Under the pieces are notes generated by a model. That model ran no database searches. It was not told the DNA's origin and saw nothing but the letters and a program-made list of their open reading frames with translations. DNA of 34,514 nt, taken from NCBI GenBank assembly GCA_041480905.1, contig JBGPAW010000001.1, positions 1 to 34,514 on the forward strand, given 5' to 3'. Position numbers and translations under genes: made by a program. Shown here piece by piece: positions 16,259 through 34,514 of this stretch. Source of the stretch: Phycisphaerae bacterium. GTDB lineage: Bacteria > Planctomycetota > Phycisphaerae > UBA1845. How positions within the stretch are numbered: position 1 is the first letter of the stretch; each line of letters begins with the position of its first letter.

Positions 16259-16264
16259 TGAGTA

Positions 16265-16292
16265 GCTGTCAGCTTTCAGCTAACAGCTAAGA
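16265..16292. repeat. Tandem heptad repeat AGCTGTC AGCTTTC AGCTAAC AGCTAAG, 6 nt after the gspG stop
   Basis: Read directly from the sequence: four consecutive 7-nt units, each starting with the palindromic AGCT. Related arrays lie at 19038..19065 and 31251..31278. Confidence 0.85.
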
Positions 16293-16317
16293 CCATTGCG
16301 CTGCCGAGATGGCGTAA

Positions 16318-18158: not shown

Positions 18159-18160
18159 TC

Positions 18161-19018
18161 GTGGCACGGCGTGTGGACAAACCGGTTCGTGGTCGGGCGG
18201 GAGGGTTCACCTTGCTGGAGGTGGTGCTGGCGATGTCCATCTTCACCGTGGTGAGCGGGGTGATGTACTGGTTCTTCTGGAATTCGCTGAGCGTCACGGA
18301 ACAGGAGACGGCCCAGGCGCGCAACGTGCAACTCATCCGCGTGGTGCTGGACCGGCTGGCGCAGGAAATCCGGCAGGCCGACGGTTTCGTGCCCGGTTAC
18401 GGGGCGGGGATCATCGGATACAAGCACGCCATTTCGATCAACACCACGGTCCTACCGGACAAGAAACTGATGTACCCGCGTTCCATTAAGGACCAACAAC
18501 AAGTGGGTCAGTTCGACGTCGAGGAGGTCCGCTACTACATCGGGTGGGACGAGGAGAACCTGGACGCGGAGGGCAATCCGCGGGCGTTGGGGCTGGTGCG
18601 GCGGGAGCGGAAGACCTTGCTCCAGGAAGTGGTGATCCGGGGCGACGAGCAAGCGGACACCGGTAACCAGGAACAGGCCGTCGCGATCAAGGAAGAACTC
18701 TACGCCCCGGAGCTCAAGTACATCGAGTTCAAGTACTTTGACGGCGCCACCTGGTGGGATGACTGGGAGATCACGCAGGGCAACGCCTTGCCGCAGATCA
18801 TCCGGGTGACGGTGGGGTTTGAGCCGGTGCTGCCCAAGGATGAGGAAATGAAACTGATGGAGGACGACTTTTTGCGGGACGAGGCCGAGTTGGTGCCCCT
18901 GGCCCCGGACCGCTTCGCCATGTTCATCCGCGTGGTGCAGGCGGATACGTTTTTCGGCTCGCGTCTGACGCGCGAGTCCTCGGCGCTGATGAACTCGGGG
19001 GAGAACAAGGGGTTCTAA
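18161..19018 (+). CDS. Minor pseudopilin, GspJ-like
   Basis: GTG start 2 nt after the upstream stop. ...RGRAGG|FTLLEVVLAMSIFTVVSGVMYWFF is a prepilin motif. It is followed by ARNVQLIRVVLDRLAQEIRQA, typical of GspJ-type pseudopilins. 285 aa. Confidence 0.7.
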   Translation: MARRVDKPVRGRAGGFTLLEVVLAMSIFTVVSGVMYWFFWNSLSVTEQETAQARNVQLIRVVLDRLAQEIRQADGFVPGYGAGIIGYKHAISINTTVLPDKKLMYPRSIKDQQQVGQFDVEEVRYYIGWDEENLDAEGNPRALGLVRRERKTLLQEVVIRGDEQADTGNQEQAVAIKEELYAPELKYIEFKYFDGATWWDDWEITQGNALPQIIRVTVGFEPVLPKDEEMKLMEDDFLRDEAELVPLAPDRFAMFIRVVQADTFFGSRLTRESSALMNSGENKGF

Positions 19019-19037
19019 GAAACGTCGAAACGCCGAA

Positions 19038-19065
19038 AGCTGATAGCTGAGAGCTGATAGCTTAT
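19038..19065. repeat. Tandem heptad repeat AGCTGAT AGCTGAG AGCTGAT AGCTTAT, 20 nt after the gspJ-like stop
   Basis: Read directly from the sequence. On the minus strand it reads ...ATCAGCT CTCAGCT ATCAGCTTTCGGCG. That is the same CAGCT-heptad family as 16265..16292, in inverted orientation. The last unit overlaps ATG 19064. Confidence 0.85.
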
Positions 19066-20611
19066 GCAGGATCGCGGGTGCCAAGTTGGTTTCGTTGGTG
19101 GACGGCCGCAGAGGGACGGTGCCGGTAGGCGCGGACTGATCCTTCCGGTCGTGCTGCTGATCCTGGCGCTGCTCGCGCTGCTGGCGGCCAGCTTCGCCTT
19201 CCAGGTCAACGCGGATTCCGCCGCCACCCGGGCGCTGGTGGAGAGAATGCAGACCCGGCTGGCGGCGGAGGCGGGTTTCCAGTACGTAGCCTTGGTGCTG
19301 CGGGATCACCTCGAGGACGTGAACGCCTGGTACGATAACGAAGAGAAGTTTCGCGGCGTGGTGGTGTGGTCGGCCACCGGCGGGCTGTCCACCTTCGGCG
19401 CGGTGGAAAAGTCGGACACCCAGAGGAGCCAAGCTAAGGATAAAAACAGCGTCGCCCCGGCCTATCGCTTCAGCGTTGTCGCGGATGACCCCAACGACGA
19501 TCAGGTCAAAGTTCGCTATGGAATCACCGACGAGGCGTCCAAACTGAACATCAACACGGCCACGGCGGCCCAGTTGACCCGCCTGATCGCCCAGGTCGTC
19601 CCACCGGAGGTTCAGGTGGAGCCGCTGGTGGACGCTCTGCTGGACTGGCGCGACCCGGACGATACCGTGAGTTCCAACGGCGAGGGAGGCGGCGCGGAAA
19701 GCGACTACTACCGGTCCTTGAAGGTGCCGTATCGGTGCAAGAACGCCCCGTTCGACACGGTCGAGGAGCTGCTGATGGTCCGCGGGTTCACCGGGCAGAT
19801 TCTCTACGGGGAAGATGCGGACCGGAACGGGCTGCTGAGTCCCAACGAAGACGACGGGAATGTGACCTTCCCCCCCGACAACGCCGACGGAGCGCTCAAT
19901 CGGGGGCTTTATCCCTACATTACGGTTCACTCGCGGGAGTTCAACCGGGCCAACGACCGCAAGCCGCGCGTGGTGCTGGTGGGCGGCGGATCGAACACGC
20001 GCTTGGAGCTGGAACCCTTCTTCAGCGCGGAGGAGGCGGATTATCTGGTGGCACGGGCGGCGGCGACGGGGGAGTCCCGGCCAACGTCCCTCACCGCGTT
20101 CTTGGAGACGGCTTCGACCAACGGTCTGGTAAGCCCGTTTATGCTGGAGGATTTTCCGCGCATCGTGGACCGCTGCACGCTGGATCCTTCGCCGGAACTC
20201 CGCGGTCTGATCAACATCAATACCGCGCCGCCCGCCGTGCTGCGCTGTTTGGAGGGATTGACCGCTGAGGACGTCAACAACATCGTCCAGAAACGGGCGA
20301 CCTTGAGCGCCGAGACCAAACAGACCCCCGCCTGGCTGCTCACCCAAGGGGTGCTGGACCAGGAGAAATACGACGCGGTGGCGGAGGGGATCACCGCCCG
20401 CGGGCTACAGTTTACAGCCGAGGTGGTCGGATACGCCGATCACCTCGGGGTGCGGGCTCGCTTCCAGATTATTTTCGGAATGCGTGGCCCGGTGCCGCAA
20501 ATCCTGTACTATCGCGATCTGACCAACCTGGGAGTGCCTTATCCACTGACCCGCGAGGAAGAAGAAACAGGTGGTTATGCCCATGGGCTGGGTGGAAAGA
20601 CAACTGGTTAG
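19064..20611 (+). CDS. gspK: Type II secretion minor pseudopilin GspK-like
   Basis: 515-aa ORF with the hydrophobic N-terminus RRGLILPVVLLILALLALLAASFAF. GspK hallmarks are YGITDEASKLNINTATAAQLTRL, FDTVEELLMVRGFTGQILYG and GLININTAPPAVLRCLEGLTAEDVNNIVQKR. No clear SD precedes ATG 19064. Confidence 0.8.
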   Translation: MQDRGCQVGFVGGRPQRDGAGRRGLILPVVLLILALLALLAASFAFQVNADSAATRALVERMQTRLAAEAGFQYVALVLRDHLEDVNAWYDNEEKFRGVVVWSATGGLSTFGAVEKSDTQRSQAKDKNSVAPAYRFSVVADDPNDDQVKVRYGITDEASKLNINTATAAQLTRLIAQVVPPEVQVEPLVDALLDWRDPDDTVSSNGEGGGAESDYYRSLKVPYRCKNAPFDTVEELLMVRGFTGQILYGEDADRNGLLSPNEDDGNVTFPPDNADGALNRGLYPYITVHSREFNRANDRKPRVVLVGGGSNTRLELEPFFSAEEADYLVARAAATGESRPTSLTAFLETASTNGLVSPFMLEDFPRIVDRCTLDPSPELRGLININTAPPAVLRCLEGLTAEDVNNIVQKRATLSAETKQTPAWLLTQGVLDQEKYDAVAEGITARGLQFTAEVVGYADHLGVRARFQIIFGMRGPVPQILYYRDLTNLGVPYPLTREEEETGGYAHGLGGKTTG

Positions 20612-22157
20612 CATCGACTGGGATATCCGCAACCTGCGGGTGGTGTCCTTCACCGTGCGCGCCAAAGGGGACGTGCGGATCCGGAAGGTCTTTTCCGTGG
20701 CGATCCCTCCGGAGGTGAGCGTAGGCGATCCGGCGTCCTTCGGGCAACTCCTGGCGGAGGTGCTGCGGCGAGAGGAGATCGTGGCCAAGCGGATGGTGGT
20801 GGACGTGCCGCGGGATCAGGCGGTGCTCAATACCCTGCGGCTGCCGGTGGTTCCCGCGGACGACCTGGCGGCGATGGTGGAGTTTCAGATCGGCAAGGAG
20901 TTGCCGTTTCCGCTGGCGGCGGCGGTGACGGACTACGCGGTGCCGGACGAGCCGGACGAAGCGGGTACGCAAGAAGTGCTGGTCGCCGCCGTGCGGCACG
21001 AGGCCCTGGAGTATTACAAACAGACGGCCGAGGTGGCGGGCTTGAAGCTGGAGCGCATCGGTCTGCGTCCCTACGCCAACAAGGTGGCGGTAAATGAACT
21101 GCTCGGCGACACCCGGCACGAACGGGTCCTATTCGTGGACGTCGGCCCGGTCCTGAGCGAGATCGACGTGTTGCGGGACGGGAAGCTGGTCTTCTCGCGG
21201 GCGGCGTCGGTGCAGGTTCCCAGACCTCCCCCGAGTGCCGCGGCTCCGGCGACCGAAAAAAGCCCTTCGAGGCTCGACCTGGATCTCTGTCTCACGGGGG
21301 TCGTGGCGGAGGCGGTCCTGCCCGAACAAGACCGCGTGGTCTCGGCGCTGCTGCGCGAAGTGGCGTTGACGATCGAGGCCTATCGCGCCGGCGATCCGGG
21401 CGCGGACATGAACCACGTGGTGGTGGGGGGGGACACCGGGCTGGAAGAGGCTTTGTTGGGGGCCATCCGCCAGCGGTTCGAGATCACCGGGGAGCGCTAC
21501 AACCCGACGGCTTGCCTGGGTTGGGACGGCACCAGCGGGGCGGCGGCGGGCGGATTCGCCGCGGCCTTGGGTTTGGCGCTGGGTCACGCCGGGGCGGGAC
21601 GCCTGGACTTTGACTTCATGCACCCCAAGAAAGCGGTGCCGCGGAGCCGGCGCCGGCTGCGGAAGGCCCCTATCGCGGCGGCGGTCGTGCTGCTCTTCTG
21701 CGCGGCAGGAGCGGTGGCGTACGTCCGGGTGGTGGGCCCTAAGAAACAGCAAATCGCCAATCTGGAGAAACAAGTCGAGAAGGCCAACGCCCAGTTGAAA
21801 GAGTACAAGAAGTTCGGCGAGATGATGACCAAGGTGGAGGAATTCGAGCGGGAGCAGATTATCTGGCTCGACGAGTTGGCCGACTTCCTCTCCGTTTGGC
21901 CGGACACCGATCAGATCGTGCTGTCCTCGATTGATCTGTCGCAGAAGGAGGGGCTGATCCAACTCAAAGACATGTATTGCCAGGATGTCAACGTGGCGGA
22001 CGCCGCACGGGCGCGGTTGGATGCGTTCAGAAAATCCGACGACGGGCCTCTGCTCTATGACGCCACCTTGGGAGGCAATACGCCGCAGAAGGACGCGTAT
22101 TCGGTGAAGGCCTCGATGACCATCGAGGTGAAGAACCGCGGGGGTCGCGCGGATTAG
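20571..22157 (+). CDS. PilM-like (actin-fold) + PilN-like fusion; functional equivalent of GspL
   Basis: 528-aa ORF. The N-terminal part LVSIDWDIRNLRVVSFTVRAKGDVRIRK...VVDVPRDQAVLNTLRLPVVPADDLAAMVEFQIGKELPFP...FVDVGPVLSEIDV is PilM-like. A TM segment APIAAAVVLLFCAAGAVAYV, a coiled coil (QIANLEKQVEKANAQLKEYKK) and an alpha/beta domain then resemble PilN or the GspL periplasmic half. It overlaps the gspK-like 3' end by 29-41 nt. ATG 20583, behind AGGTGG, is the likely start. Confidence 0.7.
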   Translation: MVMPMGWVERQLVSIDWDIRNLRVVSFTVRAKGDVRIRKVFSVAIPPEVSVGDPASFGQLLAEVLRREEIVAKRMVVDVPRDQAVLNTLRLPVVPADDLAAMVEFQIGKELPFPLAAAVTDYAVPDEPDEAGTQEVLVAAVRHEALEYYKQTAEVAGLKLERIGLRPYANKVAVNELLGDTRHERVLFVDVGPVLSEIDVLRDGKLVFSRAASVQVPRPPPSAAAPATEKSPSRLDLDLCLTGVVAEAVLPEQDRVVSALLREVALTIEAYRAGDPGADMNHVVVGGDTGLEEALLGAIRQRFEITGERYNPTACLGWDGTSGAAAGGFAAALGLALGHAGAGRLDFDFMHPKKAVPRSRRRLRKAPIAAAVVLLFCAAGAVAYVRVVGPKKQQIANLEKQVEKANAQLKEYKKFGEMMTKVEEFEREQIIWLDELADFLSVWPDTDQIVLSSIDLSQKEGLIQLKDMYCQDVNVADAARARLDAFRKSDDGPLLYDATLGGNTPQKDAYSVKASMTIEVKNRGGRAD

Positions 22158-22181: not shown

Positions 22182-23501
22182 GTGATGAACCAACGTGAGA
22201 GAACTCTGCTGCTCGCGATCGTGGTGGCGGCCGGCGGGCTGCTCAGTTGGAAGGTGGTCATTCCCCGATGGCTGGCCCCCATGTTCGACTATGAGGCCAA
22301 AATCACCGAAAAGACAGAGGAGCTCAAGACAAAGATATCGGAGATTTCCGAACTGGACGATGCCCGGGAGAAGTATCGGGATTACGTTTATCGTACCGGA
22401 GGGACCGACGAGAAAGACGTGGGCGATCGGTTCCACGGCACCCTGAATGATTTGTTGAATCAGTGCCGGCTGGAGGACGTGCGGGTAACCCCCAAGAGCA
22501 GCGGCTCACCCAGCAAGACCGGCCTGATGACCCTGAACTACAACATCCGCGCGAGCGGTCCCTTGCAGCAAGCCGTGCTGTTCCTCAAGAGCTTTTATGA
22601 GCTGCCACACATCGCCCGGTTCAAGGACTTCAAGCTGACTCCCCAACAGGCACGCCGACGCGGCCAGCCGAGCGATGCGGTGGACCTGAGCGGTGACATC
22701 GAGGTGCTGGTGCCGCCCACCTTTTTCAGCCCGATCCGTGATCCGCTGGAACACCAACCCCCTCGGCTGGTCAAATACCACACCGACCACTTCGCTTCGA
22801 TATGGGAGAAACAACCGTTCACCCGGCCGCCGGTCGCGGTAGCCAAAGTGGAACCGCCCCCGACTCAGCCGCCCCCCCCGCCCCCCCCTCCGGGATGGAC
22901 GGGGGACCCTCTGCGTAATCAGAAGAAGATCGTGGGTTGTTGGGCGGCCAATCAGGAAGTGATGGTCACGAACACGGCCAGCAACCAGCGGGAGTACGTT
23001 CGGGTAGGGGGGCAGTTGGATGGCGGCAGGCTGCTCTTAGTGCATCCCTACGGCGTCATGGTGCGTAGAAAAGAGGGAAACGAGCGGCGAGAATACTTGT
23101 ATCCTCTGGGAGAGATGTTGTCCAGCGCGGTGGCTCTCGCGGAAGCGACCCGGGAACCGCAACTCCGCGCCGCAGCCCGCCATTATCTGACGGAGGAGAA
23201 ACCGAGCGTTGAGGGGGCGGAAAGCAACGGTGCCGTGGGGACGCCCGACCCAACCGCCGGAGCTTCCGGCGAACTGGCGGGGCCGCCCGAGAATCTGGCG
23301 GGGCCGCTGGTGCAAGCTACTCCAGTCCCCGCAGCCGAGGTATCGGTGTCGCAGGCGCCCCCGCCCACTACGTCTGTGGGGGAGATACCTCCGCCAGTGG
23401 GGCACCCCGAGCGGCGCCCGGGTTGGCCGACGACCGATCTGGCCGGTCCGCCGGTGGAGTTGGCCGGTCCGATCGTGGAGCCTAAGGGTGGAAAACCATG
23501 A
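22182..23501 (+). CDS. PilO/GspM-like membrane protein fused through a poly-proline linker to a PilP/GspC-HR-like beta domain, with a LAGP-repeat tail
   Basis: 439-aa ORF (GTG 22182 / ATG 22185). It has a TM segment LLLAIVVAAGGLLSW, a coiled coil, and a PilO-like core LMTLNYNIRASGPLQQAVLFLKSFYELPHIARFKDFKLTP. The linker is EPPPTQPPPPPPPPG. The segment IVGCWAANQEVMVTNTASNQREYVRVGGQLDGGRLLLVHPYGVMVRRKEG resembles the PilP/GspC HR domain. The tail carries four (E/N/D)LAGP motifs. Confidence 0.55.
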   Translation: MMNQRERTLLLAIVVAAGGLLSWKVVIPRWLAPMFDYEAKITEKTEELKTKISEISELDDAREKYRDYVYRTGGTDEKDVGDRFHGTLNDLLNQCRLEDVRVTPKSSGSPSKTGLMTLNYNIRASGPLQQAVLFLKSFYELPHIARFKDFKLTPQQARRRGQPSDAVDLSGDIEVLVPPTFFSPIRDPLEHQPPRLVKYHTDHFASIWEKQPFTRPPVAVAKVEPPPTQPPPPPPPPGWTGDPLRNQKKIVGCWAANQEVMVTNTASNQREYVRVGGQLDGGRLLLVHPYGVMVRRKEGNERREYLYPLGEMLSSAVALAEATREPQLRAAARHYLTEEKPSVEGAESNGAVGTPDPTAGASGELAGPPENLAGPLVQATPVPAAEVSVSQAPPPTTSVGEIPPPVGHPERRPGWPTTDLAGPPVELAGPIVEPKGGKP

Positions 23502-23562: not shown

Positions 23563-26500
23563 ATGCGTCAATTGCGTAGTAGCATCCGTCACGTCGTGAC
23601 CTGGGCGAGGTCGGCCCGTCGGCTGATCGGTCCGGTGGTCCTGAGTCTGGCGTTGGGTGCCGGGCTGCCGACCGGGAGAGCTGACGAACCGCCCGCGCCG
23701 GTCCGAAAGGGTGGCGAACCGGCCCGCGGGACGACCACGGAACCGGCCGGGGCGCGCCCGTCCCGACCGAAGCCGCCGAAGACTAGCGGTGTAGCCACGA
23801 AACCGAAGCCATCCCCGGTCACTCCGCCCGGCAAAACGCCGCCCCGACCGACCCCCGAGGGCGACAAGAATCCCCCACCGGAAGGTGCGGGATCGGCCGG
23901 CACCGGCCCGGAAGGCGAACCCCTGGAGAGCGGGATTGACGCCACCTATGAGCAGATGCTCAAACCGGCGGAGGAGCGGCGCTACTCGATCAGCATACAG
24001 GAGGGGAGCTACGCTGATTTGCTCGACGCCTTTTCGCGGATGTCCGGGCTGGCCATCCTGGGCGACACCCCGGCGGGGACGGTCACGTACGTCAGTACCG
24101 AGGAGATGGACTACACGGCGGCGCTGAGCCGCATGCGCAAAATTCTGTTCAACCATCCCGAGAAGTTCTACCTCTGGCGGGAGGGCAATACGCTGGAGGT
24201 GTTCCGGGTCACTGAAGCCCAGCGCAAGATGAAGCCCGATCGGATTCACACGAGCGTGCACGCTTTTCTGGCCGCCGAGCTGGATGAGATGGAAATCGTG
24301 CTGGTGCTGTATACGCCGGAGACCGGACGGGTGGCCGATTTGGAGTCCTTGCGGGACTTCATGCCCGACTACGTGCGGATCGCGCCCTATCGGGACAAGA
24401 ACGCGTTGACCATTCTGGCGCTGGCCCGGGACGTGAAGAAATACCTCGAACTGGTGGGGATCTTCGAAACCGCCGAAGGAGATCCGCGCCAGTTAAAGGC
24501 CCTGCCCATCCGCTACGTGTTGCCTTCCGAAGCCGTGGAGATGCTGTATCAGTTCATGCCGGCCCTGGCGGAGAGTGTTTCGGCCCCCAGCGCGCCGCCG
24601 CCGAAACCGCGCAAAGGGCAGCACCCCGCGGAAGCCAGCCTGGAGAGTGCCCGGGGTCACGGCATCGACCTGATTCCCTATGACGCGGTCCGCAAGCTGT
24701 TCGTCCGGGGCATGCCCGACAGGATCGCGGAGATCGAGAACTATCTGGAAATCATCGACGTCCAGCGCGGTCCCGGGGACAACCCGGTGATTGTGCCGCT
24801 GAAATACACGCGGGTGGAGCAGTTGCTCACCCTGCTGCGCCCCTTCTACACGGGAGAGCCCGCGGCGCAGGCGCCGCAGCCGCCCGCCGGCGGGAAAGGT
24901 AAGCGAGCGCCCGTGGTCAAGGCCGTGACCAACGAGTCAATCATCACCGATACCATCGAAATCTACGCCAACCCTGCGAACAACACCCTCATCGTCATGG
25001 CGGACGAGGAGCAACTGACCAAGCTGCGCATGTACGTGAGCCTGTTGGATATCCCTTCCCAGGACCAGACGGTCCGGGTGAAGTTGGAACACGCCGAACC
25101 CGAGGCGGTGGCGGCCTTGACGGTGGAAATCGCCCCGATCCTCGGTCCCAACACGGCGGTGGGACTGTTAGTGAAGGTGGATCCCGCCGGTGACGGAGTC
25201 CTGGTGATTGGTAACCCGCAGGGCGTCGAGTTGGCCAAGAGGATCATCGCCGACCTGGATCAGCCGGGGGAGGGTGGTCCGCCCGCCATTCACGCTTATC
25301 CGTGTGAGAACGCGAAGCCATCGGCCCTGATCGGGCTGTTGACGAACCTGGACCAGCAATCCGCAGGTGCGGCGCCCGCGGCACCACCGCAGCCGCCGGG
25401 CCCTGCCAAGAAAGGCCAACCACGGGCCGCCCGAAGACCGGTCCAAGGCGGCACGCGATACTACGGCGATGACGCCACCGGTTTGCTGTACGTGATCTGC
25501 ACGGACAGCGAATGGGAAGAAAGCTACCTGCCCCTGCTCAAGAAGCTCGATCAACAGGCGCAGACGGACCTCAAGGTGGTGGTGGTTCCCGTGGCCCACG
25601 GCGATCCGCAAAAAATCATCGAGTCTTTGGTGCAAGCCCTGAGCGGAGGGCAAAGAGGCGCCGCCATCCCTCCGCCGACCATGCTGCCGCATCCCGAGGG
25701 CGTCATGGTGGTCGGGGCTTCAGCGGCCGTGGTCGAACAGATTCGGAAGCTGGTGGCGGAGCTGGACGTCGACCCGGGGATCGAGCGACGGACCTTCACG
25801 CTGCAATATGCCGACCCCGCCGAGGTCAAAACGGTGCTCGACGCACTGGTCGTGCAGGGTGCCGGCCCCAGAATCACACCCAGGCGTGGAGGCAAGGGTC
25901 AACCGGCCCCTCCTCCGGCGCCCGGAGCCCCGAGCGTCCAGATCGTCCAGTCCGGACGGAATCTTCTGATCGTGGTAGCACCCGCGCAGGAGATGGCGGA
26001 GATCGCCGCGTTGATCACCGAGTTGGACGTCGATCCCCTGAATCTGCGCGTGAAAGTCTACGACTTCCCCGTGGGCAGCAACGTTCTGGAGATCGCCCAG
26101 ACCCTGTCCTCGTTCTATCCCGGCAGCGCGGCGGTGCCGGTAGCCGAAGCGACGGAGAAAGGCAAACCGCGTCCCCGGCAAATGACCGCGCCGGGCGACA
26201 TCCGCTTCATTCCCCAGCCCTCGGCGCACAAGATCCTGGTTTCCGCCCCGGCCGACATGTACCCCGACATCGAGGAAAAGATCGCGTTGCTCCGGCCGGA
26301 GGCGGGCATAGCCGGTCCCATGGTCGAGTTCTTTGAGGTGGCCCATCTCGACCCGCAAACGTTGACGGGGGTACTCGAACCGCTGCTGGAGACCAAGTAC
26401 CAGGAACTGGTGGACACGGGGGTGATCCCGGAGAAGCCCCCTGGAAAGGGCCCGGCCGCCAAACCCGTTTCCGTCACGCCCGATCCGCGCGGGGACCGCG

Positions 26501-29500
26501 TGATCGTCGTGGCCCCGGTCCAGATGATGGAGCCCGTGCGTAAGTTGATCGAGCGGCTGGACCGCCCCGATCGCGCGCGGGTGATGAAGACGGTCACGCT
26601 GGAAAAGGCCGACCCCAAGGAGATGGTGACCACCGTTCGAGCGCTGCTCTCCAGTCGTGGGGCGCTGCCGGCGGCGCCGACGACGGCGCCGGCCCGACCG
26701 GGCGGTCAACCTCCCGGAAGAGGTCGAGCGGCGCCCCCGCAACGGCCTCAAGCCGGCGAGACGGAAACCGTGACCGTTGTGGAAGCGCCGGGCGGGTCCG
26801 CCATTCTGTTGAGCGGGTACGAGGATGACGTCGCCCGGGTGGAACAGTGGATCAAGGACCTGGACGAGGCGGCCAAGAGCGGGCGGGACATCAAGATTTA
26901 CGCGCCCAAGAACGTCGCCGTCGAGGATTTCGCCGATGCGGTGATGACGCTGGTAGACTCCGGCGGCGGAGCGGCGGCCGCACCGCCCAAACCTAAAGGC
27001 GGCAAGGAAGGGGAGAGTCTCTTTGACATGGACCTTTTCAGCAAAGGCGGGCCGCGGCGCGGCAAGGACATCTACTTGGTGACCGACACCTGGGCCCGCA
27101 CCATGCTGGTCAGCGCCATGCCGTCGAAGATTCGCGAGATTGATCGGTTGTACGAGGTGTACGAAGGCAAGGAGGGCGAGGAGCCCCAGATGCCCGTCAG
27201 CAAGCCGCAACCCTACGAGATCTACACACTCAAGAATCGCAAGAGTGCTTATGACGCGGTCTGGGATCTGGAATCGTACATTGATAAGCTCTGGCCCGAT
27301 CCGAGCAACAAGCCGAAGGTGGATTACATCCCCTTCACCCCGGACCTCATTATCCGGTGTCGTCCCGAGGACATGCAGGGCGTCAAGGACCTGATCGAGA
27401 AATACGTCGACAAGCCGGGCGAGAAAACGACGCTCGAAGAACGAACGGCTTACGAGGTGATCCAGTCGCAGGGGATTACCGCACGCGATCTGGCCCGGCT
27501 GGTCCAGTCGCGCGTCGGCCCCGATAAGGTGCATCTGCAGGAGATCAGCGCCGCGGATCAAGACTACATCAAGAAGGTGGAGGAAATCACGCCGTGCGTG
27601 CTGCCGGTCTGCGCGGTGCAAGGGATGCGCGCCGTGGCTTGCGGAATGGCCGACGAACCTGCCAAGTCCACCACCCAGCCCGCGGACCTGAACTCACCAG
27701 CGTTCAACGAGCAGATGAAAATGAAACAAGACCTGCTGCGGAGCCTCTCGGATAAAACCGCCTCCGGCGGTGAGGCGGCGACGTCGCAGCCTGCCGGCGC
27801 CGAAGTCGGGCCGGGTACTCCGGCCGGCCAGCCGGCCCCGGCGACAGAGGCCGCGGGACCCGAGCAGGTGCTCACCATCGCGCCGGACGACGAGAAAGGC
27901 GTGGTGGTGATCAAGGGCACCAAGCAGGAGGTTGCCGAGCTGAAAGACGTCATCGAGAAGATCGTGGAGGAGTTGCAGAAGGTGCCGCAACCGCCGGACA
28001 TCCGCGTGTTCCGTGTGAAGTTCGTAGACGTGAACACGGCCGCCGACATTCTCGAAGCGATGTTCAACGCGCCGCGCCAGCGGAACCTGACTCCGCAACA
28101 GATTCAACAGATGCAGCAGTTGCAGATGCTGCAACAACAACAGCAGCAACAACGGCAGCAGCGTCAGCCGCAGCAACCCCCCCAGGCCGGGCAAGAAGAG
28201 GACAAGGGCAAGGGTAAGCAGCGTAAGGAGGGCGAGGAGGCGCAGCAACCGCAAACGCCGCAACAAGAGCCCGGTCAAATCCGCGTCTACCCCGACGCGC
28301 GCACGCACACGCTGATCATCCGGGCAAGTCCGGAACAATACCCCCCGATCATCAAGCTGCTGGCCACGGTCGACAAGAAAGGGACCGCCGCTGACTTCCG
28401 CATCTACGCGCTCAAGCGGCTGAACGCCGCCGAGGTGGAACAAAAGCTGAAGGAGATGCTCGGATTGGAAGGGCGGTCGGCCCGCGCCTCGCAGCCTCGT
28501 CCGACGACGCCGGGCGGTCGGCCCGGCGTGCCGGTTCAGAACCCGCAGGGGCAGCCCATAGAGTTCATGATGGACATGGGCGGCGAATCCCTCTCCCTCA
28601 CCGGCGCCGAACGCGTCACTATCTCCAGCAACCCCGCGACGAACACGATCATGGCCATGGCCCCAGAGAAGACCTTGGATCTGATCGGGCAACTCATCGA
28701 CCAACTGGAGGAGCAGGAAGTCCCACTGTGGGTGACCAAGACGTATGAGTTGAAGCATGCCGACGCCGCGGACGTGGCCGCGCAGTTGGAGAAAACGTTC
28801 AGCGGCAAGAGTCAGGGCAAAGGAGTCGAAGGCTATGATCCGTCCGACGTGAATCGGCCCACGTTCATCCCCGACGCGCGGATGAACAGCATCACCGTGC
28901 GGGTGCTGGAACTGGACCTGCCCAAGATCGAGCCGCTGATCGAGCAATTCGACCGCGAGAGCCGCGACGACAAGCCCAGGTACATCAAGCTGCAGTACGC
29001 CAAGCCCAGCGAGGTGGCCAAAAAGCTGCAAGAGGCCTTTGCCGGGGTGGGCGCGGGCAAGGGCGGAAAAAAGAGCAAGATCCAGATCACCGGCGACGAC
29101 GGGAGCATGCAGTTGATCGTGATCGCTCCGCCGGACACGTTCGCTGACCTGCAGGACATGGTCGCCAAGCTCGACGTGGAACGGACCAACCTGGAGTTCC
29201 GGACCTTCTCCCTCACCTACGCCCGGGCGCCCGAGGTGCTGCGCCAGATGACCGAGCTCGTCCGTGTACTCATCCAGACCGGGCAGAAGAGCGGCGTCGA
29301 TCTGGGCGTGTTCAGTGCCGTGGCCGACGAGCCCACCAACGCGCTCGTCGTCGCGGGTGAGCCGACCATCTTCCCCATCGTGGAAGGCGTGCTCAAGAAG
29401 ATCGACGTGCCGCCGCCCGAGCCGGTAGCCCTTGAAACGCGCATTTACCGGCTGGTGTCCGCCCAAGCGGAGGACGTGGCCAACACGATCAACCGGCTGT

Positions 29501-31245
29501 TCGGGCAGGTGCGCGGCAAGGGCGGGGCCGAGCCCGCCCGGGCCGAGCCCAACCCCAGCACCAACACCGTGCTGGTCCGAGGCACCAAGAGCCAGCAGGA
29601 GGAAATCTTCAACCAGGTCATCAAACCGCTGGACGAGTTCGCCGAGCAACCGATCAACCTCAAGCAGGCGGTGATCGACCTGCAATACGCCAAGGCGGAC
29701 GAGGTGGCCAACTACCTCAACGAGTGGTTCCGCAACCAGCAGCAGACGATCCGGGGCGCGGGGATCAAGGGCATCAACCCGCTCGATTTTACGGTCTCCA
29801 TCACACCCGAGGTGGCGAGCAACAAACTGCTGGTGACGGCCAACGACAAGAATCTCGAGCTCATCCGGCAGCGCGTGGCGGACGTGGATCGCAAGGAGTT
29901 CGGGGACCTGACGGCGCGGGTGACCATGCCGTACGCGCTCATGAACGCCGACCCCAACGCCGTGGCGCAGATCGTGAGCCGGCATTTCCAGCCGACCGGC
30001 GGCAAGATCGCGGAACGGGACCGCGTGGACGCGGCTCCGGAGGTCGCCACCATGCGCGTCGTAGTGACGGCCAGTCAGCAAAACCAGGAAAAAATCGCCG
30101 CGCTCATCGAGCAGTTGGACAAGGACAGCGTCGTGACGCGCCCCACGCACGTGGTCGAGTTGCACAACAGCGACGCCGCGGCGGCGGCCCGGGCGTTGCA
30201 GGAGATGTTCGTGCAGGGACGCGCGGGGCCCCGCGGCCAGCAGACCGTCTCGATCTCCAACCCGCAGGGCAGCAATTCACTGCTGATCCGAGCGAATGAG
30301 AAGGAGTTGGCCGAGATTCAGGCGGTCATCACCCAGATGGAAGCAACCGGGACCGCCGGCGGCGGCGAGATCAAGATCATCCCGCTCAAGTACACCGACG
30401 CCGAGGAGACTCGGGTCATCCTGGAGGAATACCTGCGCAAACCCGGCGCCCGCGGCGGGGGTCGGGGCGGCGGAGGCGGGGCCGAGTTGGTGGGCGACTT
30501 GCGGATCAGCGTTTCCACCCAGAACAACTCGCTGATTCTGTCGGGGAACGCCGAACAACTCGCCCAGGTCACCGAAGTGGTGGCCCGCATCGACGTGGAG
30601 GTGGAAGGCGCCGGCAACGTGCCCAAGATCATCCGGCTGGAGCACGCTCAGGCGTCGGCCATCCAGCCCCAATTGGAGGAACTGTTCAAACAGCAGCCGG
30701 GTCGGCGTTCGCCGGGCGGCGGAGGCGCCGCCCTCCAGCCGGTGATCGTGGCCGACGACGCGAGCAATTCGCTGATCGTGCGGGCCAACCCGGCGGATTT
30801 CAACGCCATCGAACGGTTGGTGAAGGACTTGGACAGCGAGGGAGCGGCGGGCGCCGGCATTCGGATCGTCCGCGTGGCTCCCGGGGTGAATGTGGTGGAC
30901 ATGGCGGCGATGCTCGAAGACAGCTTCAATGCCAGTCTCAAGAGCCAGCCGGGCGGTGGCGGTCGCGGGCGACCTGTCCAGCAGTTGACCATCACGCCCG
31001 ACACACGCACCAACAGCTTGATCCTGGCGGGCGCCCCGGCGATGTTCGACGATATCGAAGCCACCATACGGACCCTGGAAAAGATGGGTCCGCAGGGCGG
31101 CCAAGTCACTCGGATCATCCGTACAAAAAATGCGGATGCGCGGGACGTAGAGTCTGTTATTCGGGACCTGACGGGAGATAATACCGGCACGAAGAGTTCC
31201 GGTCGCGGGGGCGGTTCGCGCGGAAGCCGCCCACCGCGGAAGTAG
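23563..31245 (+). CDS. Giant (2560 aa) secreted protein composed of ~25-28 tandem secretin N-domain / ring-building-motif repeats; no secretin beta-barrel domain recognisable
   Basis: GGAG precedes ATG 23563. The signal-like N-terminus is RLIGPVVLSLALGAGLPTGRA|DEP, followed by a Pro/Lys-rich ~90 aa. Then ~70-100-aa units recur with the GspD N-domain hallmark (beta-strand + x(L/F)K(Y/H)xxAxE(V/T)xxxL... + D/NxxxNxL(I/V)(I/V)xAxxxxxxxIxxLIxxLD). Examples: IPLKYTDAEETRVILEEYL...STQNNSLILSGNAEQLAQVTEVVARIDVE; IRLEHAQASAIQPQLEELF...DDASNSLIVRANPADFNAIERLVKDLD; TLQYADPAEVKTVLDAL...SGRNLLIVVAPAQEMAEIAALITELDVD. It ends in an RGG-rich tail without a GspD/PilQ C-domain-like segment. Confidence 0.85.
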   Translation: MRQLRSSIRHVVTWARSARRLIGPVVLSLALGAGLPTGRADEPPAPVRKGGEPARGTTTEPAGARPSRPKPPKTSGVATKPKPSPVTPPGKTPPRPTPEGDKNPPPEGAGSAGTGPEGEPLESGIDATYEQMLKPAEERRYSISIQEGSYADLLDAFSRMSGLAILGDTPAGTVTYVSTEEMDYTAALSRMRKILFNHPEKFYLWREGNTLEVFRVTEAQRKMKPDRIHTSVHAFLAAELDEMEIVLVLYTPETGRVADLESLRDFMPDYVRIAPYRDKNALTILALARDVKKYLELVGIFETAEGDPRQLKALPIRYVLPSEAVEMLYQFMPALAESVSAPSAPPPKPRKGQHPAEASLESARGHGIDLIPYDAVRKLFVRGMPDRIAEIENYLEIIDVQRGPGDNPVIVPLKYTRVEQLLTLLRPFYTGEPAAQAPQPPAGGKGKRAPVVKAVTNESIITDTIEIYANPANNTLIVMADEEQLTKLRMYVSLLDIPSQDQTVRVKLEHAEPEAVAALTVEIAPILGPNTAVGLLVKVDPAGDGVLVIGNPQGVELAKRIIADLDQPGEGGPPAIHAYPCENAKPSALIGLLTNLDQQSAGAAPAAPPQPPGPAKKGQPRAARRPVQGGTRYYGDDATGLLYVICTDSEWEESYLPLLKKLDQQAQTDLKVVVVPVAHGDPQKIIESLVQALSGGQRGAAIPPPTMLPHPEGVMVVGASAAVVEQIRKLVAELDVDPGIERRTFTLQYADPAEVKTVLDALVVQGAGPRITPRRGGKGQPAPPPAPGAPSVQIVQSGRNLLIVVAPAQEMAEIAALITELDVDPLNLRVKVYDFPVGSNVLEIAQTLSSFYPGSAAVPVAEATEKGKPRPRQMTAPGDIRFIPQPSAHKILVSAPADMYPDIEEKIALLRPEAGIAGPMVEFFEVAHLDPQTLTGVLEPLLETKYQELVDTGVIPEKPPGKGPAAKPVSVTPDPRGDRVIVVAPVQMMEPVRKLIERLDRPDRARVMKTVTLEKADPKEMVTTVRALLSSRGALPAAPTTAPARPGGQPPGRGRAAPPQRPQAGETETVTVVEAPGGSAILLSGYEDDVARVEQWIKDLDEAAKSGRDIKIYAPKNVAVEDFADAVMTLVDSGGGAAAAPPKPKGGKEGESLFDMDLFSKGGPRRGKDIYLVTDTWARTMLVSAMPSKIREIDRLYEVYEGKEGEEPQMPVSKPQPYEIYTLKNRKSAYDAVWDLESYIDKLWPDPSNKPKVDYIPFTPDLIIRCRPEDMQGVKDLIEKYVDKPGEKTTLEERTAYEVIQSQGITARDLARLVQSRVGPDKVHLQEISAADQDYIKKVEEITPCVLPVCAVQGMRAVACGMADEPAKSTTQPADLNSPAFNEQMKMKQDLLRSLSDKTASGGEAATSQPAGAEVGPGTPAGQPAPATEAAGPEQVLTIAPDDEKGVVVIKGTKQEVAELKDVIEKIVEELQKVPQPPDIRVFRVKFVDVNTAADILEAMFNAPRQRNLTPQQIQQMQQLQMLQQQQQQQRQQRQPQQPPQAGQEEDKGKGKQRKEGEEAQQPQTPQQEPGQIRVYPDARTHTLIIRASPEQYPPIIKLLATVDKKGTAADFRIYALKRLNAAEVEQKLKEMLGLEGRSARASQPRPTTPGGRPGVPVQNPQGQPIEFMMDMGGESLSLTGAERVTISSNPATNTIMAMAPEKTLDLIGQLIDQLEEQEVPLWVTKTYELKHADAADVAAQLEKTFSGKSQGKGVEGYDPSDVNRPTFIPDARMNSITVRVLELDLPKIEPLIEQFDRESRDDKPRYIKLQYAKPSEVAKKLQEAFAGVGAGKGGKKSKIQITGDDGSMQLIVIAPPDTFADLQDMVAKLDVERTNLEFRTFSLTYARAPEVLRQMTELVRVLIQTGQKSGVDLGVFSAVADEPTNALVVAGEPTIFPIVEGVLKKIDVPPPEPVALETRIYRLVSAQAEDVANTINRLFGQVRGKGGAEPARAEPNPSTNTVLVRGTKSQQEEIFNQVIKPLDEFAEQPINLKQAVIDLQYAKADEVANYLNEWFRNQQQTIRGAGIKGINPLDFTVSITPEVASNKLLVTANDKNLELIRQRVADVDRKEFGDLTARVTMPYALMNADPNAVAQIVSRHFQPTGGKIAERDRVDAAPEVATMRVVVTASQQNQEKIAALIEQLDKDSVVTRPTHVVELHNSDAAAAARALQEMFVQGRAGPRGQQTVSISNPQGSNSLLIRANEKELAEIQAVITQMEATGTAGGGEIKIIPLKYTDAEETRVILEEYLRKPGARGGGRGGGGGAELVGDLRISVSTQNNSLILSGNAEQLAQVTEVVARIDVEVEGAGNVPKIIRLEHAQASAIQPQLEELFKQQPGRRSPGGGGAALQPVIVADDASNSLIVRANPADFNAIERLVKDLDSEGAAGAGIRIVRVAPGVNVVDMAAMLEDSFNASLKSQPGGGGRGRPVQQLTITPDTRTNSLILAGAPAMFDDIEATIRTLEKMGPQGGQVTRIIRTKNADARDVESVIRDLTGDNTGTKSSGRGGGSRGSRPPRK

Positions 31246-31250
31246 CGGTC

Positions 31251-31278
31251 AGCTTTCGGCCATCAGCTACCGGCCAAA
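31251..31278. repeat. Degenerate heptad array AGCTTTC GGCCATC AGCTACC GGCCAAA, 5 nt after the giant-gene stop
   Basis: Read directly from the sequence. The 7-nt period alternates the palindromic tetramers AGCT and GGCC. GGTCAGCTTTCGGCC resembles TGTCAGCTTTCAGCT at 16269 and the minus-strand ATCAGCTTTCGGCG at 19031..19044. It can also fold as CTTT(C)GGCC...GGCCAAAG. Confidence 0.7.
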
Positions 31279-31336
31279 GGATGGCAGGCTGGGGTCGGGA
31301 ACTCGCAATTTTGAACTCGGAAGCGAGGGTCTGGTG

Positions 31337-34300
31337 ATGAACACGATCGCCGTTTCCTTGATCGTAGGGTGGTTGGGCATTTCGGCCCTGGCCCAGGAGC
31401 AACCCGCCGGCGAAAGTACGGCGCTCTCCGAACGGGAACAGGTCGACGCGCTGATGGACGAGGCGCTGGCCCGTCAGGACGAAGCCAAGCCGCGGCCTCC
31501 GGCGCGGCGCGACACCAGGTCCGCCGACCGCAGGGAGGCTGCGCCCACCGCACCCCTCGCCACGACCAACGGCGCAGAGGAAGGCACGCCCCCCGAGCGC
31601 GCCGGTCAGCCGCTCCCGTCCATGAGCGGGGTCAACCTCTCCGGCGCCAACGTGGACATCCAGACCGTGGGGTCGGGCACCATCATCATCACCGGCAACG
31701 AGAGCGACGTAGCCATGATCGAGGCCTTGGTGGATCTGCTCGACCGCCAGGGCCCCCGGAACGAGATGCGGGTGGTCACCCTGGAACAGGCGGGCGCGAA
31801 GCGCGTGGCGGAGAAGGTGCAGTCCATCTATTCGAAGCTCAAGGCCCGGCCGGAGGACCAAGTGGCGTTGGTCGCGGTGACCGAAAGGGTGGTGGTGATC
31901 GCGGCGCCCGCCCATCTGATGGACGAAGTGCTCAACATCGTCAAGACCATCGACATCCAGGGCACATTCCCCAGCACCGCCAGCATGACCTTCCAGATCA
32001 AGCACCGCAAGGCCTCGGAAGCGGCGATCCAACTGAAGAAAGTCCTCGATGCCCTGCGCAAGAAAGCGGGCGAGGACGCCGGCCCCGAGGCCGAGATCAT
32101 CCCGCTCGACGCCAACAACACGATTCTGATCACGGCCCCGGAGAGCGAGCGTGCCAAGATTCAGGGCCTGCTGGATGCCATCGACGTGGAGCCCGCGGCG
32201 GGCTGGGGCGACGTCCTGCTGACCGTCTTCCCGCTGCGGAACAGCAAGGCGGAGGAGTTGGCCAAGACTATCAAGGAGCTGATTACGGCCCAGGCGGCGG
32301 CGGACAAGGCCAAACCGGGCGAGGAGCCGCTCCGCCGCCTGCGCATGGTGGTGCGGACGCCGGACGGTCAGCAGCGTGAGTTGCCGCCCTTGGACCTGGA
32401 GAAGCCCCTGAAGCTCATCGCGGACAAAGGGACGGAATCGCTGATCGTGGCGACGGTGGAGTCCAACGTCGCCCCGCTGGGTGAGATCGTGGACATTCTG
32501 GATGGCGTCCCCGGCGCCGAGGAAGTGGGCTGCCAGATTCTCCATCTGCGTTACGCCGACGCCGAGTCGGTTTCCAAGATGCTCGACGACATGTTCAAGA
32601 AGGGCAAGGACCTGCCCAAACCAGCCCCGGGCAGCGAGAGCAGTACGGCGGTCCCCGAAGGACCGATCGGAGAAGCTCTCTCCTACAACGTCACCCTGGT
32701 CACCGACCTGCGGACCAACACCCTGGTGGTGGCCGGCAAGGCGGCGCAGGTCGCGCTGGTCGCCGAGTTGGTGAACAAGATCGACGTACCCTCGGCCGCC
32801 ACCAAGTTCCCGCTGCGGCTGGTCCCCCTGGCCAATACCGACGCGACCCACATGGGCAAAATCCTCGAGGAACTCTTCAAGCAGCGGGCGGAATCGTTGG
32901 AGAAGAGCAACGCGGGCAAGTCCGTCGTCGAGCGGGAGAAGGTGTTCCTGGCCGTGGACATCCGCCGCAACGCGCTGATCGTCGCGGCCTCCGAGGAAAA
33001 CTACAACGAAATCCTGGAGATCACGGCCAAGCTCGACGGCGCCGGGCAACGGCTGATCGAGAACATCCGCATCATCAACTGCGCGAACACCTCCGCGGGC
33101 GACCTGGCTAAGAAAATCGAGGACCTGTGGAAGCGCAAGGCCGATCTGCGCAAGGAAGGGAAATTGCCCGCCGATCTGCCCGTCATCGTGGCGGATCAGC
33201 GGAGCAATGCGCTGGTGATCGCCTCGTCGGTGGAGGACTATGACGAGATCAAGCGGTTGGTCGATCGGCTGGAGAGCCAGCCGCTGGCCCCCATCGCCCA
33301 AATCCGGCTGATCGAGATCAAACACAACGACGCCTCCAAGATCAGTGAGATGCTCAAGAAGCTGTTTGAGGAGCGGATGAAGCAGCGCCTGATCGAGGGG
33401 CAGAAGGAGAACCCCGCCGATCGGGCGGCCTTCGCCGACGATCCGGCTACCAACACCATTCTGGTGGCTTCGTCGCAGGAGAACTACGACGAGATGATGC
33501 GGATCATCGCGGCCCTCGACACCGAGCTGGACGTGGAAGGTGTGGTCCAGTTCTTCGTCCTGCACAACGCCGAAGCGAGCACCGTGCAGAAGAAGATCGA
33601 CGACCTGTTCAAGGCCGGCATCTACAGCCCGACCAAGGGGCTGGACAGCAAGCTCATCCAGGAGCGCCAGAAAGTGACCGTGGTCGCCGACCCGCGCTCC
33701 AACGCGGTCATCGTCAGCGCCAGCAAGCCCAACCTGGCCATCGTCCAGAAACTGATCGAGGTGATGGACACGGAAGACGCGCCGCTGCTCCAGCAGGACA
33801 CGCGCGTGTTCGCGCTCGGGACGGCCGACGCCCTCAAGCTGGCCAAGATGCTCAAGGACCTCTTCGACGGCATGAAGAGCAGCGCCCCCGAGCCCGATCT
33901 GGTCCGCCCGCCGACCATCATCGCCGACGAGCGGAGCAACAGCCTGTTCGTGACCGGCTCGCGGGACAGTCTGAAGCGCTGCGACGACCTGATTGGTCGG
34001 ATTGAGGAGCAGAACGTGCAGCGCACGGCGGTGTTCCAGATCTATCCGCTCAAGCATTCCGCCGCCGCTCCGCTGGCCCAGAAGATGCAGGAGGCGTTCG
34101 ACAAGCGGGAAAAGAGCGGCGAGCAGAGCGCCCGCACCCCGATCTACATCATGGCGGACGAGAGCACCAACAGCCTGATCTGCAGCGCCTCCCGCGACGA
34201 TCAGGAACTGATCGCCAACTTGCTTACACTGTTGGACAAGCCGTCCAGCATTGCCAAGCAGTTCGAGATCTTCCCGCTGAAGGTGGCCAAGGCCCAGGGG

Positions 34301-34514
34301 CTGGCCGATCGGCTGGACAAGCTGTTCAAGAGCCAGGCCAAAGGGGGCGGCGGAGGCGGCGGACGGGCCGACGCCATCGCCGTCGAGCCGGACCCGCGCA
34401 CCAACGCGTTGATCGTCTGGGCCGCCCCGTCGCAGTTGGACAACGTCAAGGAGATCATCGCCAAGCTGGACACCCATGAGCCGGTGAAGGAAATGCAGAT
34501 GCGGGTCATCCGGC
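31337..34514 (+). CDS. Second secretin-like protein (GspD-family N-domain repeats), 3' end beyond the window (at least 1059 aa)
   Basis: Own translation from (GTG 31334) ATG 31337 gives MNTIAVSLIVGWLGISALA|QEQPAG..., a signal peptide. An open frame then runs to the window end with at least ~12 secretin-N repeats. Examples: MRVVTLEQAGAKRVAEKVQSIY...VTERVVVIAAPAHLMDEVLNIVKTID; ILHLRYADAESVSKMLDDMF...DLRTNTLVVAGKAAQVALVAELVNKID; IYPLKHSAAAPLAQKMQEAF...ADESTNSLICSASRDDQELIANLLTLLD; ...DPRTNALIVWAAPSQLDNVKEIIAKLD. It is missing from the ORF track because it has no stop in the window. The 1106-aa minus-strand ORF 31157..34477 is its shadow. Confidence 0.85.
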   Translation, partial: MNTIAVSLIVGWLGISALAQEQPAGESTALSEREQVDALMDEALARQDEAKPRPPARRDTRSADRREAAPTAPLATTNGAEEGTPPERAGQPLPSMSGVNLSGANVDIQTVGSGTIIITGNESDVAMIEALVDLLDRQGPRNEMRVVTLEQAGAKRVAEKVQSIYSKLKARPEDQVALVAVTERVVVIAAPAHLMDEVLNIVKTIDIQGTFPSTASMTFQIKHRKASEAAIQLKKVLDALRKKAGEDAGPEAEIIPLDANNTILITAPESERAKIQGLLDAIDVEPAAGWGDVLLTVFPLRNSKAEELAKTIKELITAQAAADKAKPGEEPLRRLRMVVRTPDGQQRELPPLDLEKPLKLIADKGTESLIVATVESNVAPLGEIVDILDGVPGAEEVGCQILHLRYADAESVSKMLDDMFKKGKDLPKPAPGSESSTAVPEGPIGEALSYNVTLVTDLRTNTLVVAGKAAQVALVAELVNKIDVPSAATKFPLRLVPLANTDATHMGKILEELFKQRAESLEKSNAGKSVVEREKVFLAVDIRRNALIVAASEENYNEILEITAKLDGAGQRLIENIRIINCANTSAGDLAKKIEDLWKRKADLRKEGKLPADLPVIVADQRSNALVIASSVEDYDEIKRLVDRLESQPLAPIAQIRLIEIKHNDASKISEMLKKLFEERMKQRLIEGQKENPADRAAFADDPATNTILVASSQENYDEMMRIIAALDTELDVEGVVQFFVLHNAEASTVQKKIDDLFKAGIYSPTKGLDSKLIQERQKVTVVADPRSNAVIVSASKPNLAIVQKLIEVMDTEDAPLLQQDTRVFALGTADALKLAKMLKDLFDGMKSSAPEPDLVRPPTIIADERSNSLFVTGSRDSLKRCDDLIGRIEEQNVQRTAVFQIYPLKHSAAAPLAQKMQEAFDKREKSGEQSARTPIYIMADESTNSLICSASRDDQELIANLLTLLDKPSSIAKQFEIFPLKVAKAQGLADRLDKLFKSQAKGGGGGGGRADAIAVEPDPRTNALIVWAAPSQLDNVKEIIAKLDTHEPVKEMQMRVIR

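Follow-up and report, generated by a model that had tools for sequence, protein, structure and literature searches.

Few outer-membrane machines of bacteria are as well studied as secretins, which assemble as homo-oligomeric rings of 12–15 subunits. Classical GspD carries N0–N3 on one chain of ~650 amino acids (aa), and to our knowledge every described secretin is a single chain of ~500–900 residues that carries both foot and pore. The family average is 555 ± 151 aa (PMC4827864). Thermus thermophilus PilQ, with 757 aa and six stacked rings (N0–N5), has been called ‘exceptionally long’ and spans a wide periplasm (PMC5745081), and Deinococcus radiodurans DR_0774 (PDB code 8co1) combines N0–N3 and an N-terminal flange with unrelated belt and cap subunits (PMC10828601). 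Here, we describe two adjacent open reading frames (ORFs), ORF1 and ORF2, at the end of a stretch of 34,514 nucleotides (nt) from a Phycisphaerae bacterium (GenBank assembly GCA_041480905.1, contig JBGPAW010000001.1, positions 1–34,514 of the forward strand; hereafter the window) that probably encode, as two genes, one giant type II secretion secretin (GspD) of ~4,250 residues. The pair is a secretin by every feature tested, yet no single chain has the usual one-chain layout. No description of giant or split secretins was found in open-access papers or bioRxiv preprints.

As for GspD, XcpQ, and PulD (PDB codes 5wq7, 5wln, and 6hcg), the pair features a putative signal peptide, N0, N-domains of β-α-β-β-α topology, a PF00263 barrel in its orthologs, and a place in a gsp operon. 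Unlike GspD, it comprises ~40 N-type domains and ~4,250 aa distributed over two genes, with N0 and barrel on separate polypeptides; neither ORF has N0 on the same chain as the barrel, and it is the pair together that supplies both. As in Thermus PilQ, extra N-domain rings would lengthen the periplasmic channel, but there are about seven times as many of them, the operon is of the kind seen in type II secretion systems (T2SS) and not that of a type IV pilus, and two chains are involved. DR_0774 is likewise a secretin adapted to an unusual envelope, in its case a thick one, with separate additional subunits. Its partners, however, are unrelated proteins around the barrel and not a second N-domain stack, and it has only N0–N3 and the flange. 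The two genes and their parts are, with coordinates and strand:

23563..31245 (+): ORF1, barrel-less proximal half of the probable split secretin, 2560 aa, with putative signal peptide, Pro-rich linker, N0, ~25 N-domains, half-domain, and basic tail
23953..24501 (+): N0–N1 foot of ORF1, aa 131–313, assigned by PDB profile, AlphaFold2 (AF2), and Foldseek
24502..31080 (+): N-domain array of ORF1, aa 314–2506, 23 profile matches and one divergent domain at ~aa 1213–1283
31096..31191 (+): terminal half N-domain of ORF1, β1–α1 only, aa 2512–2543, containing VTRIIRTKNADARDVESVIRDLTG, profile positions 1–32
31192..31242 (+): basic Gly/Ser/Arg tail of ORF1, aa 2544–2560
31246..31336 (+): spacer between ORF1 and ORF2, 91 nt by sequence, with GAGGG at 31325–31329
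31337..34514 (+): ORF2, predicted barrel-bearing half of the split secretin, 5′ part, 1059 codons, ending at the contig end; full length of ~1690 aa expected
31337..31393 (+): putative signal peptide of ORF2, aa 1–19, MNTIAVSLIVGWLGISALA, cleavage predicted before QEQ, read by eye
31394..31645 (+): variable low-complexity linker of ORF2, aa 20–103, net charge about −3
31646..31744 (+): orphan half N-domain of ORF2, β2–β3–α2 only, aa 104–136, ANVDIQTVGSGTIIITGNESDVAMIEALVDLLD
31772..34474 (+): eleven complete Secretin_N β-α-β-β-α domains of ORF2, aa 146–1046, profile matches 2–12; the next domain starts at ~aa 1054 at the edge
31157..34477 (−): antisense shadow ORF of 1106 aa, mechanically listed, not a gene

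The ATG of ORF2 at 31337 is located 91 nt 3′ of the ORF1 stop codon, which ends at 31245, and the frame continues for 1059 codons without a stop up to the last base of the window, which appears to be the whole contig. Coordinates and frame are as given in an earlier interpretation of the window (the sequence-only reading), which had also noted that ORF2 is absent from the supplied ORF track and that the antisense ORF is listed instead. The same was seen when the ORFs were listed again, because the listing tool omits ORFs running off the end. The antisense ORF can be dismissed as a gene since the domain matches, the homologs, and the signal from GC content at third codon positions (GC3) are all on the plus frame, where GC at codon positions 1, 2, and 3 is 0.65, 0.40, and 0.90, a clear coding signature of ORF2. 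The GAGGG motif is Shine–Dalgarno-like and precedes the ATG by 7 nt. A search of the spacer for a promoter-like site found none, and the single terminator-like site, for which 0.6 are expected by chance, overlaps the ORF2 start. The length of the spacer differs among genomes, and ORF1 and ORF2 occupy different frames. For the continuation of ORF2, an exact-match search of the last 40 nt of the window against metagenome contigs gave no match; some 630 residues are predicted to be missing here because the contig ends.

Pfam Secretin_N (PF03958) matches ORF2 in 11 stretches (E 2e-109), and a self-iterated profile gives 12 matches at a regular spacing of ~80 aa, with a 13th beginning at the edge, in agreement with the at least ~12 repeats counted in the sequence-only reading. 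The signal peptide proposed there is retained as putative: the ORF2 N-terminus, MNTIAVSLIVGWLGISALA followed by QEQ, is of a type that recurs in orthologs, e.g., MNAIYISL and MKAIYTFL. What follows it is the linker and the half N-domain in place of N0, and no N0 was found on ORF2 or its close ORF2-type relatives by profiles, Pfam, or AF2. Mean identity to 20 homologs is 0.15 in the linker versus 0.30–0.67 in the domains. An AF2 model of aa 92–292 shows a strand-strand-helix unit (pLDDT 56–71) and then two complete β-α-β-β-α folds (pLDDT 77–88). The closest relatives, P0001 and P0002, are 71% identical to ORF2 at 100% query coverage, have lengths of 1687–1690 aa, and carry both PF03958 and PF00263, the latter being present in every complete ORF2-type homolog listed. 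In the ortholog at locus L001, the C-terminus matches PF00263 over 169 of 169 model positions (E 6.8e-51). ORF2 orthologs have 15 N-domain matches and then the barrel, which places the expected barrel of ORF2 at ~aa 1410–1580, past the contig edge at aa 1059. By orthology, ORF2 is the predicted barrel-bearing secretin of the gsp operon. The suggestion that the barrel is encoded beyond the window is supported, as PF00263 occurs in full-length ORF2 orthologs and not on ORF1-type proteins; for the ORF2 studied here we infer it.

ORF1 has a signal-like N-terminus as well, read by eye, next to which is the Pro-rich linker. Compared with the PDB, an N0–N1 profile that contains sequences of the single-gene (fused) giants described below matched the GspD/XcpQ N0–N1 structures 5mp2 and 4e9j (both E 3e-16), 5wln, and 5wq7. 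The AF2 model of the ORF1 N0–N1 region has a pLDDT of 86, its top Foldseek matches are XcpQ/GspD N0–N1 crystal structures, and the isolated N0 of enterotoxigenic Escherichia coli GspD (PDB code 4jtm) fits the model with a TM score of 0.79 and a root mean square deviation of 1.8 Å. Pfam matched no N0 family to the ORF1 N-terminus even at E 10. The segment aa 116–320 is homologous to the extreme N-termini of the much longer fused giants. In ORF1, Pfam Secretin_N matches 19 stretches (E 3.6e-189) and the self-iterated profile gives 24 matches, with two divergent N-domains beyond these from AF2 and weak matches. The total is N0 and ~25 N-domains (N1, 23 full profile matches, and one divergent). 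Two of the N-domains have very long inserts in the α1–β2 loop, one at ~aa 1300–1420 (about 27460–27820) with a Cys-containing segment, CVLPVCAVQGMRAVACG, and low-complexity sequence, and the other at ~aa 1530–1600 (28150–28360) with a poly-Gln run. Counting profile matches, 24 in ORF1 and 12 in ORF2, there are 36 within the window, and 39 when ORF2 is completed from its orthologs (15), corresponding to ~40 N-type domains plus N0; the ~39 estimated for the two genes in the sequence-only reading is about right.

The PF00263 barrel, sought by Pfam in the complete ORF1, is absent, and ORF1 orthologs, with lengths of 2355–3319 aa, have PF03958 only; a barrel was never found on ORF1-type proteins. 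The sequence-only reading had asked whether gene 1 is an accessory extension or part of a barrel-less system. The orthologs of ORF2 have a barrel, and ORF1 is not an accessory addition but supplies the N0-bearing proximal two thirds of the probable split secretin. We regard it as quite unlikely that ORF1 is an independent barrel-less accessory, such as a scaffold, belt, or tether, beside an ORF2 secretin, with the half-domains being degenerate ends. The variable length of the ORF1-type proteins, as of a spacer, would agree with such a role, but N0 is found on ORF1 and is missing from ORF2.

The most distinctive aspect of the pair is that the genes are apparently cut within one N-domain. In terms of profile positions, ORF1 and its orthologs end with 1–32 only, and ORF2 and its orthologs begin with ~33–71 only. 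Pfam agrees, in that ORF2 aa 101–140 match PF03958 model positions 28–68 of 69 only. When the ORF1 half and the ORF2 half are joined, they score as one domain over profile positions 1–71 (38.8 bits), and in global alignments of the joined sequence to the fused giants P0057, P0060, and P0067, which are collinear by construction, both halves fall on one intact domain. Conservation of the half-domains is 0.41 in ORF1 and 0.42 in ORF2, versus 0.15 in the linker, and the half-domain pattern is kept in orthologs at 27–37% identity. A half-domain profile gave a clear N-terminal match in 29 of 34 downstream ORFs (ORF-B) of other genomes, the sole such match in 28 of them; among the five exceptions, the upstream ORF (ORF-A) was interrupted early in three, and a short ORF-B without the match had been chosen by the simple caller in two. 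Both half-domains appear to be under selection and conserved like whole domains, which is a further argument against degenerate ends of an accessory ORF1. The cut site is the α1–β2 loop, i.e., the same loop that holds the very long inserts in other ORF1 domains. On either side of it, the ORF1 tail carries a net positive charge (+3 to +18) in all 31 orthologous pairs, and the ORF2 linker a net negative one in 25 of the 31. Whether the half-domains rejoin in trans by complementation is a matter on which we place about even chances; the complementary profile halves, the joined score, the conservation, and the AF2 secondary structure lend it indirect support.

Single-gene counterparts of the pair are fused giants of 3,400–4,900 aa (P0056–P0074 and P0183–P0218) with N0, 35–48 N-domains, PF03958, and PF00263, which occur in Phycisphaerae and other uncultured bacteria, and for which database annotation does not go beyond ‘type II secretion system protein D’ and ‘secretin N-terminal domain-containing protein’. 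They share with the pair the same N0, the barrel, the operon slot, and the number of N-domains (a total of 39 in the split pair). They differ in being one polypeptide, and in the distant ones the junction domain is intact and its loop short. P0057 and P0170 are found in the same operon slot, preceded by the same gene order as ORF1 and ORF2. P0170 is collinear with the pair: ORF1 overall corresponds to its aa 1–2407, with ORF1 aa 1535–2560 aligned to aa 1429–2407 (31% identity), ORF2 aa 106–1059 correspond to aa 2492–3442 (40%, 676 bits), and aa 85–1659 of the full ORF2 ortholog at L001 correspond to aa 2473–4035 (41%, 1110 bits). Fused proteins in the same operon slot that are collinear with ORF1 and then ORF2 also speak against an accessory ORF1.

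At the P0170 junction, the first half-domain leads into a basic tail and a short spacer, after which come a segment resembling a signal peptide, a linker, and the second half-domain. At the DNA level, GAA, which differs from TAA by one change, comes after the tail, GC3 in the spacer is 0.50, and GAGGA precedes the ATG; P0170 looks like a split pair with the stop codon lost or misread. A different situation is met in P0196 and P0209, which are continuous ORFs where the loop holds a basic stretch and a hydrophobic segment ending in AVAQT, and P0183 and P0206 have the same layout by sequence. A TGA stop decoded as Trp, which would have made P0196 and P0209 split genes, was considered and refuted, as the codon is TGG and the junction GC3 is 0.90. 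P0183, P0196, P0206, P0209, and P0170 are the fused forms nearest to the split clade (34–41% identity to the ORF2 type), and the first four are the single-gene giants in which a basic stretch and a signal-peptide-like segment occupy the loop; those fused forms in which the loop is short and intact have 25–31%. This ordering by identity suggests a path that leads from an intact domain, over one in which an internal insert resembles a signal peptide, to a pair of genes; in which direction the change ran is not established. With respect to the ancient fission or duplication raised in the sequence-only reading, fission is favored by the location of N0 only on ORF1, the barrel only on the ORF2 type, the single-gene relatives in the same operon slot, and the collinearity of P0170. 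ORF1 and ORF2 are 22–23% identical, and ORF2 as a recent duplicate of part of ORF1 is ruled out by this value. Two further proteins stand apart in the collection. P0181, with 5437 aa, no detectable barrel, and an ORF1-type tail at its end, may be the longest barrel-less member, and P0056, a fused giant of 3846 aa, is labelled Methylomirabilota; if the label is right, the giant form is not confined to Planctomycetota.

A genome scan with one genome per species, for which a single narrow pattern from closer sequences was used since a mixed N0 alignment had no conserved stretch, returned 52 loci in uncultured genomes only, all but one labelled Phycisphaerae or Planctomycetota. Where the sequence suffices, ORF-A ends after about 2,400–3,300 codons and a new ORF then starts. 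At L001 and L004, a barrel-less protein of 2792 or 2895 aa is encoded directly 5′ of the ORF2 ortholog. The split pair is kept in at least 29 Phycisphaerae species genomes. In a search with the N0–N1 region, which gave 185 representative clusters, the 82 best (37–78% identity) are all ≤3,545 aa, the barrel-less size class, and proteins >3,800 aa appear only at ≤34% identity. On this distribution, a giant secretin broken by a nonsense mutation, frameshift, or assembly error, i.e., a pseudogene, is effectively refuted, the split being conserved in the species genomes and in those 82 best clusters. The existence of fused versions and the interrupted ORF-A at three related loci (L030, L044, and L055) are what such a reading could draw on, but ORF2 has its own ribosome-binding motif, start codon, putative signal peptide, and linker, ORF1 has a conserved basic tail, and the coding GC3 is 0.90.

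Some of the loci are irregular. ORF-A is interrupted early at L030, L044, and L055, and contains a run of N at L042, which could reflect assembly errors, frameshifts, or further splits. L019 (JANQQE010000004.1) is labelled Alphaproteobacteria, but its ORF-A has a C-terminus almost the same as those at the Phycisphaerae loci L018 and L023, and the contig has probably been mis-binned. Directly 3′ of the ORF2-type secretin, L001 (15321–15848) and L004 (15012–15494) have a small gene (31% identity, E 2e-27) that starts with a lipobox-like L..GC motif. L058 22615–23211 is listed with them, and SLVGC is present in the unrelated small gene that follows the fused giant P0057. Small genes after the secretin are possible pilotin-like lipoproteins.

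Based on these comparisons, a working model for the pair can be outlined. ORF1 would contribute a signal peptide, the N0–N1 foot, ~24 more N-domains, the β1–α1 half, and the basic tail, and ORF2 its own signal peptide, the linker, the β2–β3–α2 half, 14 more N-domains, and, by orthology, the barrel. The shared strand, the 91-nt spacer, and the lack of a credible terminator suggest co-transcription of the two genes as the last of the gsp operon, and the N-termini suggest export of both proteins by Sec. From homology to solved secretins, the ORF2 multimer would form the gated outer-membrane pore with ~14 N-domain rings extending into the periplasm. ORF1 would form rings of the same symmetry, with its N0 ring predicted to engage the inner-membrane platform encoded just upstream. 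The β1–α1 end of ORF1 may complete the β2–β3–α2 start of ORF2, such that one whole N-domain ring connects both stacks and an uninterrupted conduit of ~40 rings results; docking may be aided by the basic tail together with the mostly acidic linker. If the rings stack at ~3 nm each, a spacing that we estimated from solved structures, the length of the conduit would be on the order of 100 nm. This would suit the much enlarged periplasm of Planctomycetota, which was described for Planctomycetia and not for Phycisphaerae (PMC5394234). The sequence-only reading had proposed two separately secreted multi-ring proteins forming a two-component stack, and the signal-like character of both N-termini lends support to this.

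Several observations weigh against a single split secretin. The PF00263 barrel of this ORF2 lies beyond the contig end and is taken from the orthologs, and GspE, GspO, and a recognisable GspC were not found within the window. On distant fused giants, the short half-domain profiles did not pinpoint the junction, and the reconstituted domain ranked the collinear domain top in two of four relevant giants (P0060 and P0058); that these junction-mapping controls did not discriminate is also a point for an accessory ORF1. Whole domains with long loop inserts, e.g., ORF1 match 11, give partial profile matches as well. An explanation by loop insert is countered by ORF2, which lacks a β1-like strand 5′ of its half-domain, the stretch there being unconserved. 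Finally, ring stacking, stoichiometry, and conduit length are extrapolations. It is unlikely, in our estimate, that the secretin is split as described and its arrays are flexible or partly collapsed with no rigid ~40-ring stack, or that it exports something else, such as a polymer or fibre. The lack of a known substrate, the differing N-domain counts of orthologs, and the long disordered loop inserts of many domains would all suit such a reading. Furthermore, export of this kind has been shown for GspD/PilQ ‘nozzles’ in cyanobacteria and myxobacteria, and slime secretion in other phyla is reported to require secretins of the GspD family (PMC12475490). Against it, GspG, GspJ-like, GspK, and GspF proteins of the type II secretion kind are encoded at the locus, and N-domains are stacked rings in all solved secretins, six of them in Thermus PilQ (PMC5745081).

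A single giant GspD encoded as two genes remains our preferred reading. A bolder version, which we put forward tentatively, is a two-chain secretin in which an inner stack (ORF1, N0 and ~25 rings) and an outer stack (ORF2, ~14 rings and the barrel) are locked by the shared N-domain into a trans-periplasmic tube of ~40 rings and on the order of 100 nm, insert-bearing precursors undergo cleavage after export to give the same two chains, and the separation itself is selected. In this version, the fission would have gone through single-chain forms with the insert, or would exist side by side with them. The cut after export is suggested by the internal signal-peptide-like segment in the loop of P0183, P0196, P0206, and P0209. 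Separation might be selected if, for example, the pore half is to reach the outer membrane and the foot half is to stay at the inner-membrane platform.

Upstream of ORF1 on the plus strand, the window contains:

14419–15627 (+): GspF, by Pfam
15704–16258 (+): GspG, by Pfam
16318–17286, 17034–18158, and 18161–19018 (+): pseudopilin-like genes, the last GspJ-like, by Pfam
19064–20611 (+): GspK, by Pfam
20571–22157 (+): PilM/GspL-like protein with a transmembrane (TM) helix, by Pfam (PilM_2) and translation
22182–23501 (+): TM protein of 439 aa with no family match, by translation

The genes in 14419–20611 are consecutive and match PF00482, PF08334, PF07963, PF11612 (weakly), and PF21687/PF03934. 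GspF, GspG, and minor pseudopilins including GspK are thereby present in one operon with the secretin, as is characteristic of a T2SS. The window has no gene for the GspE ATPase or the prepilin peptidase GspO; a secretion ATPase would have to be encoded outside it, and the genes for GspE, GspO, and GspC may be located elsewhere in the genome. The HR domain of GspC binds N0. The 439-aa protein, for which neither Pfam nor the PDB gave a match, begins with a TM helix and also contains a stretch resembling a coiled coil, a poly-Pro linker, and, at the C-terminus, a small β-rich segment; it could be a candidate platform component that contacts N0 in a GspC/PilP-like role. The pseudopilin-like ORFs at 16318–17286 and 17034–18158 overlap by ~250 nt as listed, and their N-methylation motifs are at aa 68–91 and 85–107, which indicates that the true starts of both are probably well downstream. 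Directly 5′ of GspF is MutS (window 11358–15627 for the two), and housekeeping genes precede as well. The gene at 5890–7668 (plus strand), which appears unrelated, encodes a cyclophilin-type prolyl isomerase with fused PKD domains (592 aa).

If the split-secretin interpretation is true, a secretin can be seven to eight times the usual size and routinely split within a domain, which changes ideas on channel length; the channel would be far longer than that of any described secretin, and built from two chains. It would bear on how the inner- and outer-membrane halves of a secretion system find each other, and it predicts a large regular structure visible to cryo-tomography. The series of intact domain, insert-bearing domain, and two genes represents an unusually clear natural case of within-domain gene fission, and the split N-domain could be used as a natural module for fragment complementation. 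For the Planctomycetota, the finding bears on the secretion of folded proteins across a periplasm that is sometimes greatly enlarged.

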